Below the pieces are notes generated by a model that did not search any database, was not told the DNA's origin, and worked only from the letters and a program-made list of their open reading frames with translations. This document shows positions 9,542 through 17,196 of a stretch of 64,000 nt of DNA, one piece after another. The position numbers and the translations under genes were made by a program. Positions within the stretch are counted from its first letter, which is position 1; each line of letters begins with the position of its first letter. Source of the stretch: Candidatus Gastranaerophilales bacterium (lineage in GTDB: Bacteria > Cyanobacteriota > Vampirovibrionia > Gastranaerophilales > JANQFW01); contig JANQFW010000056.1 of assembly GCA_028277625.1 (NCBI GenBank), positions 8,536 through 72,535 on the forward strand, written 5' to 3'.

Positions 9542-9572
9542 AATATAAAAACAAAAAAGTATACGAAATTGC
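9542..9572 (-). promoter_or_regulatory. conserved promoter-like block (RCAATT-N19-TATA) upstream of IDP1
   Basis: On the minus strand GCAATT is at 9572-9567 and TTTGTTTTTATATT ends at 9542. The block is ~270 nt upstream of the ATG. Confidence 0.5.
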
Positions 9573-9664
9573 TTAAATTTATATATTTTCTCTATAAACT
9601 TGAAAAAACTTATGAATAATAAAAAAATAAAAGCTTGCTTGGCGTTTAATATTTTATTTAACTC

Positions 9665-9694
9665 ACAAAAAAGACCCTAAACTCAATTAGGATC
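9665..9694 (-). terminator. rho-independent terminator of IDP2
   Basis: Minus strand GAUCCUAA-loop-UUAGGGUC followed by UUUUUU. Confidence 0.75.
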
Positions 9695-9731
9695 TTTTTT
9701 ATATCTTTTATATTGCTCTTTTCACTTGCTT

Positions 9732-10007
9732 TTACTTTTGTGCTTTTGGGCCTCCTTTTTTGCCCATTAACTGTTGAAGCTGTTCTGGCTTAATACCTAG
9801 CATTTCGCAGAATTGCTTTAGCATATCTGCTCCGCTTTCCTTCTTTTTCGTGTCGCAGTTTCCGTCAGGGCAATCATTCTTTTTGTTGTTAAATACGCTA
9901 TCCTTAGGTACACATTTGCCATCTTTACATACCTTACCAGGGGGGCATTTACCATTTTTACAAGGACCACAGTTTCCGCCTGGACATTTATTCATTGATA
10001 TACCCAT
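9732..10007 (-). CDS. IDP2: small Cys/Lys/Gly-rich protein (CPGGNCGPCKNGKCPPGKVCKDGKC...)
   Basis: ORF track, with an AGGAGGA SD and its own terminator. It has 12 Cys in 91 aa, 11 of them in the first ~52 aa. Confidence 0.75.
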   Translation of the reverse strand: MGISMNKCPGGNCGPCKNGKCPPGKVCKDGKCVPKDSVFNNKKNDCPDGNCDTKKKESGADMLKQFCEMLGIKPEQLQQLMGKKGGPKAQK

Positions 10008-10320
10008 AATTGATTCCTCCTTTTGATCGACTAATCTCGTAAATGTACTACTAAAAAATAATTGTGCTGAAAATTAAAGTAATAAAATAAGTATATAGAT
10101 GGACTATAGAAAATAGTAAACTATAAAAGGCTATAAACTTTTTATTGGTAATCCACGAATTTATTAATTTTTATAATTAATAAAAATAGATCTAATTTGC
10201 TAAAATGCTTTATCTTTAAATAAAATAATTAAACTTGTAATATGCTAAAATGCTTAATCTTAAAAAATGAAGTAAATAAATTTGTAATATGCTAATAAGT
10301 TTAAATAGGTGGTTCTTATT

Positions 10321-10351
10321 ATAATAAAAACAAAAAATGGCAAAAAATTGC
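10321..10351 (-). promoter_or_regulatory. conserved promoter-like block upstream of IDP2
   Basis: Minus strand GCAATT is at 10351-10346, followed by TTTGTTTTTATTATAAT. The block is ~310 nt upstream of the ATG. Confidence 0.5.
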
Positions 10352-10372
10352 TTAATTTAACTTTTTTATTAC

Positions 10373-10403
10373 GCAAAAAAAAGATCCCAATTATATTAGG
10401 ATC
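10373..10403 (-). terminator. rho-independent terminator of IDP3
   Basis: Minus strand GAUCCUAAU-AUA-AUUGGGAUC followed by U8. Confidence 0.8.
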
Positions 10404-10433
10404 AATCAGCACTAAGTTCTATTTGTAATGCAA

Positions 10434-11015
10434 TTATGCCGCTTTAGTTTGGGCATTATCTGCAGAGGATTTTTCTTCTAGTTTAGTTTTTAGTTTTTCA
10501 ACAACGTCATCAGGTACACCTAATTGTTTTAGTAATTTTGCAATTGCTTCTATAGGTCCGTCATCTTTTTGTCCACTATCGTTAGCTTGTAAAGGTGGTT
10601 GACCGCTACTTTGTGATGGTGTACTTGAAGGTGGGCTGCTTTTTGCTTGTGGGGTCGGTGGAGTGCTACTTGGTTTAGAAGAAGATGGTTTGCCTTTGCT
10701 TCCGCCGAGCTGAATATTGTTAAGGATATTTTTTATATCAAGCTTGTTTTTGCCTTTTTCTGCTCCAGTTTTACCTTTGTTTTCTTCAGGTCCGCCAGAT
10801 TTGCTAAATAAGCTTTTACCTTTGCCAGGTTTTCCACCTTTTTTGGTTTTTCCTGATTTGCCACCAAACATGCCGCCTTCTGGCCCTCCAGCTTTACCGC
10901 CTTTAAAGCCCTTGGCTCCTTTAGGTCCACCAGCTCTGCAGCCTTTGCCTCCTTTAGGTCCTCCGCCTTTGCCCATGCTAGTTGTTCCGCCTTTGTTAAA
11001 GCCTTGCATTTTCAT
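10434..11015 (-). CDS. IDP3: Gly/Lys/Pro-rich low-complexity protein
   Basis: ORF track, with an AAGGAGA SD and its own terminator. Runs such as GGPKGGKG...GGPKGAKGFKGGKAGGPEGG, and a C-terminal amphipathic island IEAIAKLLKQLGVPDDVVEKL. Confidence 0.8.
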   Translation of the reverse strand: MKMQGFNKGGTTSMGKGGGPKGGKGCRAGGPKGAKGFKGGKAGGPEGGMFGGKSGKTKKGGKPGKGKSLFSKSGGPEENKGKTGAEKGKNKLDIKNILNNIQLGGSKGKPSSSKPSSTPPTPQAKSSPPSSTPSQSSGQPPLQANDSGQKDDGPIEAIAKLLKQLGVPDDVVEKLKTKLEEKSSADNAQTKAA

Positions 11016-11264
11016 TATGAATTCTCCTTATTCTTTAGTTATCTCTCTCATTTGATAATAATAGGTAAAGGGATTAAAAAACTACATATACAAAGAATGT
11101 AGTATATGGATAACAAACAATGAGTTGAAGTTTATAAAATATAAGTTATTTAATATAATTTTTAATAATGTAATATTGCAAATGTGTAACTATGAATAAC
11201 ATGTAATCTGCTAAGTAATTATAGGGATTATTGGTATATATTAATTTTTTTTAGGGTAGTTAAT

Positions 11265-15230: not shown

Positions 15231-15301
15231 AGTTAATCCTCTCTTCTCTATTAAATTGTCTCTAACTCTCTAACGTAATTAAAAATATTAAACCATATAC
15301 T

Positions 15302-15332
15302 TATATAAACAATTCATATTCTTGGTAATTGT
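15302..15332 (-). promoter_or_regulatory. conserved promoter-like block upstream of IDP7
   Basis: Minus strand ACAATT is at 15332-15327, followed by GAATTGTTTATATAAG. The block is ~70 nt upstream of the ATG. Confidence 0.5.
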
Positions 15333-15395
15333 CATTTATTTCAAAAATAATTAATAATTAACAAAAAAATATATGATAATTTAAAACATTACGTA

Positions 15396-15782
15396 TTAGC
15401 CTTTCTTTTTAGAATCAGATTTTTTTATTATACTTTCAAGTAAAGTCACTAATGTTTTTACTAAAGAATTTTTTGATTCGCCTTTGCCATCAGTTTTAGT
15501 TTCTTGAGCTTGAGTGCTACCCTCTTCCGGTGCAGCCTCTTCACCGCCGGCAGGAATGCTACCTAGTACTGTATCGGTAATTCCTTGCGCTAAACCTAAT
15601 CCAGAATCGAAAATTGATCCTAAACCACCGCTAACACCTTTTAAACCTTGGCCTAGCCCTTTGCTAACGCCTTGACTAATACCTTTACTTACTCCTTTAC
15701 CGACGCCTTTGCTCACCCCTTTACTAATGCCTTTGCCAATTCCTTTGCTAATCCCCTTGCCGATGCCGCCAAGTAAACCCAT
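15396..15782 (-). CDS. IDP8: Gly/Lys/Ser repeat protein (GKG(I/V)SKG)n
   Basis: ORF track, with an AGAGAGGA SD. Its 5' UTR and N-terminus are near-duplicates of IDP7. No hairpin terminator was seen downstream. Confidence 0.75.
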   Translation of the reverse strand: MGLLGGIGKGISKGIGKGISKGVSKGVGKGVSKGISQGVSKGLGQGLKGVSGGLGSIFDSGLGLAQGITDTVLGSIPAGGEEAAPEEGSTQAQETKTDGKGESKNSLVKTLVTLLESIIKKSDSKKKG

Positions 15783-15860
15783 AGTTAATCCTCTCTTCTT
15801 TATTATTTTTTTCTAACTCTCTCTATTAAATCCAAACAGTTAAAATTCAATACATATATT

Positions 15861-15891
15861 TATATAAACAATTTGTGTCTCTGGTAATTGC
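15861..15891 (-). promoter_or_regulatory. conserved promoter-like block upstream of IDP8
   Basis: Minus strand GCAATT is at 15891-15886, followed by AAATTGTTTATATAAA. The block is ~75 nt upstream of the ATG. Confidence 0.5.
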
Positions 15892-15937
15892 TATATATTG
15901 CAAAAATAATAAATATTTCTTTAAAAAAGATATAACT

Positions 15938-15982
15938 TGTAAAAATCCCCACCTTAGCAAAGCTAGTGCTAAAGTGAGGATT
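15938..15982 (-). terminator. rho-independent terminator of IDP9
   Basis: Minus strand AAUCCUCACUUUAGCA-loop-UGCUAAGGUGGGGAUU followed by UUU. Confidence 0.7.
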
Positions 15983-16052
15983 TTAATCTATATAGTTATT
16001 AGTGCTTATAAATTAAATTTTAGATTATTTTTTTAGAGTTTGTTTTCTCTTC

Positions 16053-17018
16053 TTAGAGTGCTGGTATCGCAGGGTCTCCTGGCTGTCCAAATGGATTTTC
16101 AGCTGGAGCCTCATTTTGCTGTGCAGCATTTTGTCCTTCAAATAACTCAGGGTACATAGCTTTAACATCTGCTGGAGTTATTTCTCCATTCATCAATTGC
16201 TCAAGAACTTCAATTGGCAATTGCTCAAGAATTTCAGGAGGTATTTCCTCTTCAGCTGCAAGACCTTCTTCTGGTGGTACTTCTCCAGCTGCAGCTGCAC
16301 CGCCTGCTGCTGGTGCGCCTTCTTCTGGTGGCACTTCTTCGCCACCTCCACCTCCGCCAAACATGCCGCCCAATGAGCCTAAAGCACCACTTATTGCTTC
16401 GCCCAGCCCTCCAAGCATATCGCCAAATCCGCCTCCGCCTTCTTCAGCTGGTGCAGGTGGTTCACCTCCTGCTGGTGCTGGAGCACCACTGGCAGCTGTA
16501 GGTGCCGCTTCTCCAGTTGGAGCACTCGTTGGTGGAATGCTTGCTTCAGAAAGTGGTGATGCACCTGGTGGCATGCCTCCCGGTGCACCTGCTGGAGGAG
16601 CTCCTGGAGTTCCAGATGCGCCAAATGGGTTTGTAGCATCTTTTGAGAATGGACTTGAACTACTAAGTGTTTTTGGAGCTCCAAAAGCTGATTTGGTACC
16701 TAGATCACCTGGTTTAAGCAAGCTATTTGCTCCATTTGACTTTGACCCAAAGATACTGTTGTTGATAGTGGATCCTGCTCCTTTTGTTGGCTTAATGGAG
16801 CTTGGTGTGGCAGATTTTTTAGGTGCAGTAGCTTTTTTAGGCGCTGTAGTAATTGCAGGTTTCTTAGATGTAGCAGACTTTTTAGTCGCCGCAGGTTTAG
16901 CAGTCTTTTTAAACCTGGTAGCCCTTTTGGTGTTAGTAGGTTTTCTACTCTTGGCTTTGCTTCTTGACTTGCTCCTTGATTTGCTTCTAGATTTGGATTT
17001 ACCTCCAACTCTTGCCAT
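16053..17018 (-). CDS. IDP9: low-complexity protein with a basic (KSRS)n/(KKxAT)n N-block, an S/N/FG middle and an acidic P/A/G/E C-block
   Basis: ORF track, with a GAGAGGAGAG SD and its own terminator. It has the same three-block layout as IDP1. Confidence 0.8.
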   Translation of the reverse strand: MARVGGKSKSRSKSRSKSRSKAKSRKPTNTKRATRFKKTAKPAATKKSATSKKPAITTAPKKATAPKKSATPSSIKPTKGAGSTINNSIFGSKSNGANSLLKPGDLGTKSAFGAPKTLSSSSPFSKDATNPFGASGTPGAPPAGAPGGMPPGASPLSEASIPPTSAPTGEAAPTAASGAPAPAGGEPPAPAEEGGGGFGDMLGGLGEAISGALGSLGGMFGGGGGGEEVPPEEGAPAAGGAAAAGEVPPEEGLAAEEEIPPEILEQLPIEVLEQLMNGEITPADVKAMYPELFEGQNAAQQNEAPAENPFGQPGDPAIPAL

Positions 17019-17165
17019 AGTAGTTCTCTCCTCTCAAAAACTTGTATATATTTTTCTAAATATAATTCTCTCTTATTAATAATTTAAAATAGTCTAAAAT
17101 AGTCTCTCTTTTTATTTTTTTTAATAATACTGTGCAGCGAAATTATTTCTCTCATCTCTTATATA

Positions 17166-17196
17166 TATATAAACAATAATTTTGTTTAATAATTGC
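17166..17196 (-). promoter_or_regulatory. conserved promoter-like block upstream of IDP9
   Basis: Minus strand GCAATT is at 17196-17191, followed by TTATTGTTTATATATATATAAGAGATGAGAGA. The block is ~150 nt upstream of the ATG. Confidence 0.5.

Follow-up and report, generated by a model that had tools for sequence, protein, structure and literature searches.

A 64-kb window (64,000 nucleotides of contig JANQFW010000056.1, positions 8,536 to 72,535) from a metagenome-assembled genome (MAG) of Candidatus Gastranaerophilales (Melainabacteria) features nine tandem genes on the minus strand, here labelled IDP1 to IDP9, and each of them is preceded by one copy of a 37-nucleotide (nt) block that very probably functions as a promoter. 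The overall best explanation, which is held with moderate confidence, is that the block is the core promoter of an order-wide class that is read by a dedicated alternative sigma factor. On the narrower question of whether the recognising factor is specifically an alternative sigma, the chances are about even. The block is best regarded as a promoter, a known kind of element, and not as a new principle. Gastranaerophilales is an order within the Melainabacteria, which are the non-photosynthetic sister group of the Cyanobacteria. To our knowledge, the order is common in the gut, has no cultured member, and its transcription control is undescribed. A search of the literature found no work on promoters, promoter motifs or sigma specificity in Gastranaerophilales or Melainabacteria. 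The taxon names of MAGs used here are the depositors' labels.

A regular-expression search returned the nine copies that an earlier sequence-only reading of the window had listed, all on the minus strand, with the R of the RCAATT element at 9572, 10351, 11295, 12547, 13525, 14417, 15332, 15891, and 17196. The R is G in seven of the nine copies and A in two (13525 and 15332). The same reading had placed TATA always at position 26, counted from the R, with TTGTTT ahead of it. T26 is present in all nine copies and TATA in seven, but the copies at 10351 and 11295 have TATT (TATTAT); TTGTTT is found in eight copies, with CTGTTT at 13525. The division into two sub-classes and their leader lengths were reproduced. 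Class A features GCAATTT-N10-TTTGTTTTTAT and leaders of ~245–350 nt, and class B features GCAATTA-N13-TTGTTTATATA, in longer form GCAATTAT-N9-AAATTGTTTATATA, and leaders of ~65–210 nt. The TAAC(T/C)ACC tail that had been attributed to class A is clear in two or three of its five copies, but not in the remaining ones.

The class A blocks are located at 9536..9572 (IDP1, GCAATTTCGTATACTTTTTTGTTTTTATATTAATAAG), 10315..10351 (IDP2, TATTAT at 26–31), 11259..11295 (IDP3, TATTAT), 12511..12547 (IDP4, TATAAT), and 13489..13525 (IDP5, a variant reading ACAATT ... CTGTTTTTATAAT), with transcription predicted to start at about 9538, 10317, 11261, 12513, and 13491, respectively. The class B blocks are located at 14381..14417 (IDP6, GCAATTATTGAAGAAACAAATTGTTTATATATATAAG, with AGAGAGA immediately after), 15296..15332 (IDP7, ACAATTACC ...), 15855..15891 (IDP8), and 17160..17196 (IDP9), and their predicted starts are at about 14383, 15298, 15857, and 17162. 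All of these blocks and starts are on the minus strand.

Shuffling experiments agree with the proposal that AT-richness alone is a poor explanation of the block. The loose pattern RCAATT-N19-TAT(A/T) is weak in this respect, with 11 matches in the window, two of them within coding sequence, vs 3.45 ± 1.87 in dinucleotide shuffles, and RCAATT-N19-TATWWT gave 5 matches vs 0.94 expected. The fuller pattern RCAATT-N13/15-TGTTT(A/T)TAT has 9 matches in 64 kb, which are precisely the nine sites, and an N12-14 variant that finds the five class A sites only had a mean of 0.02 matches in shuffles with a maximum of 1. The full block is thus confined to nine sites vs ~0.02 expected by chance from the N12-14 shuffles. 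The chance for an upstream spacer to have even the loose pattern on its sense strand is 0.004–0.048, and the product over the nine spacers is ~3e-16. Allowing up to three mismatches to either class consensus revealed three extra matches in the window, all with three mismatches and without the TTGTTT core, and none is credible: those at 3542–3569 and 62713–62743 (both plus strand) are within listed open reading frames (ORFs), and the one at 17139–17169 (plus strand) is intergenic and overlaps the reverse strand of the IDP9 block. The window's other ~45 genes have no block ahead of them, even at three mismatches. A sequence at 45677–45648 that had been put forward as a related site has an N18 spacing, no TTGTTT, and a G instead of T at position 7. 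It was ruled out as a tenth member, and a canonical TTGACA-N17/18-TATTAT sits nearer the small ORF in question. A generic sigma-70 consensus scan of 8000–17600 gave 42 matches vs 29.8 in shuffles, which is uninformative in DNA this rich in A/T, and did not single out the blocks.

Species-representative genomes were scanned with the 18-base class A pattern GCAATTT-N10-TTTGTTTTTAT, which revealed at least 117 loci. Among the matches listed, about half are labelled as Gastranaerophilales, Gastranaerophilaceae, Melainabacteria, Vampirovibrio, or Cyanobacteriota MAGs, and many of the 'unclassified' matches look alike to the Melainabacteria-labelled ones. The 21 matches to the same pattern on viral contigs served as a chance control. 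At positions that were free in the search, the Melainabacteria-labelled copies and the viral matches have frequencies of 0.85 vs 0.52 for R-1, 0.88 vs 0.38 for T8, 0.79 vs 0.24 for A29, 0.92 vs 0.48 for Y34, 0.94 vs 0.71 for R35, and 0.88 vs 0.38 for R37. The resulting order-wide consensus is R-GCAATTTTT-N7-TTTGTTTTTATATAWATA-n-R. All but perhaps one of the viral-contig matches are without this extended consensus, and a phage promoter was ruled out. The sequence-only reading had named the lack of a positional bias to gene starts as a reason to give up the promoter. Such a bias was found: among the matches listed, 65 of 67 sites are outside ORFs of at least 90 amino acids (aa), and an ORF start within 120 nt is co-oriented with the block at 37 of the 67 sites vs divergent at 6. 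In other genomes the class A block is usually located 35–120 nt ahead of the ATG. Class B also occurs in gut assemblies, where a metagenome scan found recurrent promoter-like copies among the matches listed; an Rfam search of the leader behind a recurrent gut class B site gave no match.

Beyond the sites by which the loci were selected, about six further credible copies were found in 558 kb of Melainabacteria DNA, which suggests a few dozen sites per genome. The 52 downstream proteins in other genomes are mostly without a Pfam family, and among the remaining ones are members of the EF-hand, M16 peptidase, VanY, LysM, glucosaminidase, ADP-ribosyl exotoxin, RTX, PD-(D/E)XK, and ribbon-helix-helix (RHH) families; no ribosomal or other core genes are among the 52. 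The regulon that had been proposed for the nine genes is supported in that they share a promoter-like block, but the block is not private to them and is found order-wide before unrelated genes.

This wide occurrence in the order, ahead of many functionally unrelated genes, together with a geometry that fits a 17-nt spacer, would suit a general housekeeping consensus of an AT-rich lineage at its strongest, with no regulon behind it. Such a reading is very improbable, since all five tRNA genes compared are without the block and have canonical-type promoters instead. The tRNA-Glu gene of the window has TTGACA-N17-TATATT upstream, and four tRNA genes from other Melainabacteria loci have TTGCAT/TTGAAA/TTCCCA/TTATCC-N16/17-TATAGT/TATAAT. 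The window's other genes, the low density of extra copies in the 558 kb, and the complete lack of core proteins among those downstream all speak against it as well. Because the tRNA genes use canonical-type promoters without the block, the block is predicted to be a specialised promoter class that is separate from the housekeeping one.

Comparison of the two classes defines the register of the block. In class B the TTG is moved 2 nt downstream relative to class A (G21 to G23), whereas RCAATT and the sequence from T24 on keep their register. Both classes thus read RCAATT-N17-TTTATA, which is equal to RCAATT-N19-TATA. The most conserved free positions are the pyrimidine-purine step T34/A35. ORFs start at block position 35–36 in five loci and next only at position 48. 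One of these five, the M16 peptidase ORF of L020, is equal in N-terminal length to its L033 homologue, whose start is at position 48 with a Shine-Dalgarno sequence ahead, and position 35 is the start of both homologues in the pair L070 and L104. In L024, L033, and L114, the first base of the Shine-Dalgarno sequence is at positions 36–38. The conserved step, the ORF starts, and the onset of the Shine-Dalgarno sequences point to a transcription start at about position 35, which would put RCAATT at -34 to -29 and TTTATA at -11 to -6. The arrangement RCAATT-N17-TTTATA-N5-(+1) would then be that of a sigma-70-family promoter whose hexamers are non-canonical. The second hexamer proposed earlier, TATA(A/T)(A/T), stands as far as the T26/TATA register is concerned, but the hexamer at the canonical -10 location (-12 to -7 for a start at 35) is more likely TTTATA (24–29), with a start near 35. 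In an alternative register, TATAAT at 26–31 is paired with a start at 37–39; this suits the class A copies of the window, but neither the order-wide matrix nor the short-leader genes. All five of these copies (TATAAT, TATTAT, TATATT) have the A2 and T6 of a -10 hexamer at 26–31, class B does not, and position 31 is A at 0.67 and T at 0.27 in the Gastranaerophilales copies.

A XerC/D-type integrase gene is located nearby (4939–5880), and this is the sole support for the reading that the block is a non-transcriptional DNA site for recombination, replication, or a nucleoid protein. That reading is barely credible, given the strict sense orientation of the block, its tight distance to downstream start codons, the conserved pyrimidine-purine step where leaderless ORFs start, and its location directly behind terminators.

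Sibling genomes were found through the protein with SLH domains that is encoded next to the cluster, whose 90%-identity cluster has other members on contigs of GCA_028282645.1 (JANQHM) and GCA_028280605.1 (JANQLL), both labelled Candidatus Gastranaerophilales. Both sibling loci feature tandem orphan genes upstream of the SLH gene, each with a class A or class B block ahead. Alignments of the orthologous spacers (loci L003 and L004) revealed that the block is an island of identity amid diverged sequence, as is the case for the IDP4 and IDP9 blocks, and a second island corresponds to a GAGAGA-Shine-Dalgarno region. The IDP3 block is identical in two Logan contigs and at L004:160. In both L003 and L004 the orphan-gene cluster is cut by the contig end; its repeated genes and blocks seem to break the assemblies there, and the cluster may be larger than assembled. 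The sibling genomes carry the block on several further contigs. One of them, L008 (JANQLL010000205.1, oriented 556–5906, minus strand), has a second tandem cluster that encodes three N/Q/G-rich orphan proteins of 372–436 aa; every one of the three genes is behind a block, and four blocks are found in 8 kb. On another contig, L054, two K/S/N-rich orphan genes adjoin blocks.

A dispersed ~180-nt repeat, with copies that are 82–90% identical and in both orientations, was observed in leaders and spacers of JANQHM, including the orphan-gene cluster (L025:3169–3356, also L054, L085, L116, L077, and four places in L003). It looks like a miniature inverted-repeat transposable element and is absent from the window. 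The presence of this repeat in JANQHM leaders and spacers is one of two points in favor of the block being a functionless relic of tandem duplication or of a mobile repeat. The other is the tandem arrangement of the nine genes, which are partly paralogous, with N- and C-terminal motifs in common between IDP7 and IDP8. A relic is highly improbable, because the 37-nt block is kept amid unrelated flanks, because the block occurs with an orientation bias ahead of unrelated genes in many genera, and because the 2-nt shift of TTG in class B leaves the RCAATT-TATA register intact. Additionally, when the window was searched by BLAST with a sibling leader, the match was limited to the 35-nt block and took in no longer element, and carriage of the block by a mobile element was ruled out on this basis.

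The block has the general features of a promoter in that it is intergenic, co-oriented, at a short constrained distance to its gene, and kept in orthologous spacers. We know of no described promoter class with its consensus. Canonical (group 1) sigma-70 promoters consist of a -35 TTGACA, a 17-bp spacer, and a -10 TATAAT. The block resembles them in being bipartite, with an A/T-rich second element and upstream flank and ~35 bp to the start, and if TTTATA at 24–29 is used, the spacer is 17 nt and the discriminator 5–6 nt. It differs in the upstream hexamer, which is RCAATT, in the conserved TTGTTT within the spacer, and in a TATATAWATA-like second element that has no A(-11)/T(-7) pair in any one register. 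The claim that the upstream element is not TTGACA was upheld: the best matches are 2–4 of 6 at 16–18 nt from either hexamer, they differ between copies, and they are not conserved. A comparison with known consensus types likewise left sigma-54, sigma-28, NtcA, CRP/FNR, Bacteroidetes -7, extended -10, and extracytoplasmic function (ECF) promoters unmatched. An extended -10 (TGnTATAAT) was rejected, as TG.TA...T is in none of the nine blocks and the TG precedes TATA by 4 nt in class A and by 2 nt in class B. Sigma-54 (TGGCAC-N5-TTGCW, with GG at -24 and GC at -12) was rejected with the relaxed GG-N10-GC in only one of the nine, and sigma-28/FliA (TAAA-N15-GCCGATAA) with none. A flagellin gene in the sibling locus L025, which is next to a motif-bearing gene, has no block.

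ECF-type promoters feature a G-rich/AAC -35 element followed by a T-run, for example GGAACTT-N16-TCAAA for E. coli sigma-E; their spacer is ~16–17 nt, the -10 contains CGT/GTC, and a sigma/anti-sigma operon is usually adjacent. The block is similar in its heptamer RGCAATT and the T-rich stretch behind it, at about -35 to -29, its rigid spacing, its A/T-rich upstream region, and its specialised genes. It has AAT and not AAC, no CGT/GTC-type -10, and no GAAC-N15-19-CGT in any of the nine copies. Membership in ECF (group 4) was therefore rejected, the similar geometry being a resemblance only. Primary-sigma promoters of Bacteroidetes feature -33 TTTG and -7 TAnnTTTG with ~19-bp spacing. The block is likewise a lineage-specific non-canonical consensus with a similar count of 19 nt between its elements, but the element sequences and their order differ, and TAnnTTTG occurs in two of nine blocks, outside the conserved register. 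Additionally, the Bacteroidetes version is the housekeeping promoter, whereas the housekeeping promoters here are canonical. Late promoters of phage T4, TATAAATA, are read by gp55, and the order-wide consensus holds TATAAATA at positions 28–35. Unlike T4 late promoters, the block has a conserved upstream element at fixed spacing, its predicted start (35) is inside the octamer and not 6 nt beyond it, and the viral-contig scan gave chance-like matches only.

Activator-dependent (type 2) promoters of cyanobacteria include those with NtcA sites, GTA-N8-TAC, centred near -41.5. The block, in the sister lineage, is similar in that a -10 element and a non-canonical upstream element would define a regulon. 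It differs in that GTA-N8-TAC is in none of the nine blocks and the order-wide matrix is without dyad symmetry. A class II site of the NtcA/CRP type (GTA-N8-TAC or TGTGA-N6-TCACA near -41.5) was rejected, being absent from the blocks, with positions 11–17 unconserved, and a palindromic operator was ruled out for class A and for the order-wide matrix, neither of which has a dyad. A related but broader possibility, that the primary sigma reads the promoter with the help of a class II-type activator or under the control of a repressor, is rather unlikely though the strongest of the alternatives. Here TATAAT/TATATA at 26–31 would be an ordinary -10, and a lineage-specific transcription factor bound at RGCAATTT, perhaps with TTGTTT as part of its site, would stand in for the -35 contact. 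This would suit the perfect TATAAT at 26–31 in the copies at 12547 and 13525 and in three sibling copies, the absence of a usable TTGACA, the 5/6 inverted pair GCAATT/AATTGT of class B, and an RHH gene that bears the exact motif in two species. The same possibility is at odds with the unconserved positions 11–17 and with the missing dyad in class A and the order-wide matrix. It also conflicts with position 31, which is mostly A in Gastranaerophilales where T is expected at -7, and with the 2-nt move of TTG from one class to the other, which sits poorly with a protein site at a fixed location. Finally, a start 6–8 nt past position 31 would cut the Shine-Dalgarno sequence or ATG of the short-leader genes.

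An alternative sigma factor is preferred because of the rigid spacing, the lack of a dyad, the conservation through the start site, the upstream element at the -35 contact position, and the separation of the block from canonical promoters. In the proposed mechanism, each block would be the core promoter of its own monocistronic unit, and in both classes RCAATT (1–6), a 17-nt spacer, TTTATA (24–29), and a start at the Y34/R35 step would be used. RNA polymerase with a dedicated alternative sigma-70-family factor would use RCAATT as its -35 element and, as its -10 element, the T-rich stretch around TTTATA(T/A). A few dozen lineage-specific genes per genome would form a co-expressed regulon, with orphan low-complexity, EF-hand, cell-wall-acting, and toxin-like proteins as its members. 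The idea of a common non-housekeeping promoter and regulon, which the earlier reading had already raised, is supported by the layout, the conservation in siblings, the order-wide spread, the conservation of free bases, and the contrast with the tRNA genes.

Several points weigh against the preferred explanation. The conservation of the sequence, its placement and orientation with respect to genes, and the contrast with tRNA promoters are observed directly; promoter activity, the start point, and the nature of the factor are all deduced from sequence. The hexamer that goes with a start at 35 (TTTATA/TTTTAT) is without the A at -11 needed by the known sigma-70 groups 1–3, and TATAAT (26–31) as the -10 would need a start at 37–39, which clashes with the short-leader genes. 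Extra half-site-like copies of TTAAGCAnTTTA, the upstream half of the promoter, occur in two long leaders, those of IDP2 and IDP4, and are also kept in the orthologues, which suits a DNA-binding regulator, as in the activator scheme, over a sigma contact. Pfam scans of window proteins revealed no sigma factor or obvious regulator among those covered. At the 18 bases fixed by the order-wide search the consensus is imposed and not observed, and the counts per genome are lower bounds, with enrichment not exactly quantified.

The nine genes occupy 8190–17018 on the minus strand, and their ORFs are IDP1 (8190–9263), IDP2 (9732–10007), IDP3 (10434–11015), IDP4 (11436–12176), IDP5 (12667–13143), IDP6 (13606–14175), IDP7 (14535–15230), IDP8 (15396–15782), and IDP9 (16053–17018). 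Each of the nine has a GGAGG-type ribosome-binding site ahead. A strong hairpin with a T-run is found in seven of the eight gaps between the genes, 20–70 nt upstream of the next block. The intrinsic terminator after IDP2 is located at 9665..9698, and analogous terminators are located at ~10375–10403, 11349–11389, 12602–12635, 13544–13580, 14439–14489, and 15940–15983, all on the minus strand. No terminator hairpin is present in the 63-nt gap after IDP8, and the IDP7 block is the only one without a hairpin ahead. The predicted repeating unit is a terminator, the block, a leader, a Shine-Dalgarno site, and an ORF, which argues for nine separately promoted monocistronic units.

The leaders feature a second shared element, (A/C)(T/G)GAGAGA(T/C)A, which is located 25–40 nt before each IDP ATG (span 9298..17153, minus strand). 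Copies of GAGAGA are found at 9298, 9341, 9521, 11047, 12209, 13175, 14211, 14379, 15823, 17072, 17108, and 17153 on the minus strand, and in class B the element is also found directly after the TATA. Of the 21 minus-strand GAGAGA sequences in the window, 15 fall inside the 8-kb cluster, and the element is kept in the orthologous leaders of the sibling MAGs. It could act at the mRNA level, as a signal for processing or translation, or else be a second promoter in a proximal location. Tandem direct repeats of 43–55 nt, in two or three copies each, also occur in the long class A leaders, at 10173–10304 (IDP2 leader), 12349–12420 (IDP4), and 13316–13423 (IDP5) on the minus strand. UAG is frequent in these repeats (TAGTAGG, TTAGCATATTACA), and some of them are similar to the promoter's upstream half (TTAAGCAnTTTA). 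Rfam searches of the whole window at the gathering threshold and of 9000–17600 at E<=1 returned the tRNA-Glu and sub-threshold noise only, and the long leaders therefore cannot be assigned to a known RNA family. The IDP6 leader, when folded, gave z = -2.76, which is suggestive of a structured leader.

The products of the cluster are 91–357 aa long, of low complexity, and rich in K/A/P, G, S/T, or Q. A Pfam scan of IDP1–9 found no family over the cut-off; IDP1 has a match under the cut-off to the chlamydial histone-like HC2 (E = 1.8e-4). The N-terminus of IDP1 consists of AAPKKAAPQK repeats and that of IDP9 of SKSRSKSRSKS repeats, and IDP2 and IDP4 feature Cys-rich clusters of the CxxC type. 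A search for IDP3 homologues among 5.8e9 proteins returned only the self-match, and no IDP9 homologues were found among 1.84e9 (1.84 billion) representatives. IDP3 is present on one 78.5-kb NCBI contig and two Logan contigs. Many products encoded downstream of the block in other genomes have Ile/Asn/Ser/Pro-rich N-termini, M-x-x-I-N-P ... F-K/R-G/S (L009, L110, L033, L114, L020, L023, L098, L090, and others). These N-termini could recall type III or flagellar export signals, with AT-rich codon bias as the alternative. A short LLxxLLxxLxG helix is common to the disordered downstream products and is also found in IDP1, 2, 3, 5, 7, and 8. This N-terminal and helix signature could be an export or partner-binding signal or plain AT-rich codon bias.

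The divergent neighbour of the cluster is the SLH protein (17509–19908, plus strand, 799 aa), which has three SLH domains and an N-terminal region of long Cys/Pro-rich repeats (CPTCPTGAAA ...). It is at least 90% identical in the sibling MAGs and adjoins the orphan-gene cluster every time. The remaining window is ordinary chromosome, in which Pfam identified BamB, TPR, and KdsB-like proteins, a Xer-type recombinase, the SLH-domain protein, glycosyltransferases, ClpP, pilin-like genes, GlyS, and an SNF2 helicase. No sigma/anti-sigma gene pair was seen beside the IDP genes. Two paralogous operons of pilin-like proteins with an N-methylation motif share a ~155-nt leader that is 80% identical (~33907–34059 and ~38972–39126, plus strand) and contains GGGGTGAGGTTT ... 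TTTGTTA.AGTAT. This leader may be a cis-regulatory RNA or an operator, and Rfam gave no match there. The small ORF mentioned above has 36 codons, MLSFTSKLNAQQQQQQAATAQKAAQFCCLRFCNKFK (45397–45507, minus strand), and has its own TTGACA-N17/18-TATTAT at ~45592–45560 and a terminator hairpin. Its product could be a small peptide that contains Cys.

An order-wide consensus that is set apart from the housekeeping one would make a co-regulated set of genes predictable from MAGs alone. The block flags dozens of low-complexity orphans as real genes that are transcribed individually and probably co-expressed, and phylogenetic profiling of the block could lead to the sigma factor or regulator that is responsible. 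The exact predicted starts are checkable in existing metatranscriptomes. A further reading, which is speculative and unlikely on its present footing, is that the block is the site of a dedicated, unrecognised sigma or activator that drives an order-wide programme of orphan disordered and effector-like proteins. If this is true, the members of the programme would include proteins with histone-H1-like K/A/P repeats, Cys-rich, SKSR-repeat, and EF-hand proteins, cell-wall hydrolases, and an ADP-ribosyl toxin domain, and the programme could be developmental, envelope-building, for a resting cell, or a secretome against the host or competitors. For the Cyanobacteria's sister lineage, the block would be a data point on the diversification of promoter recognition.

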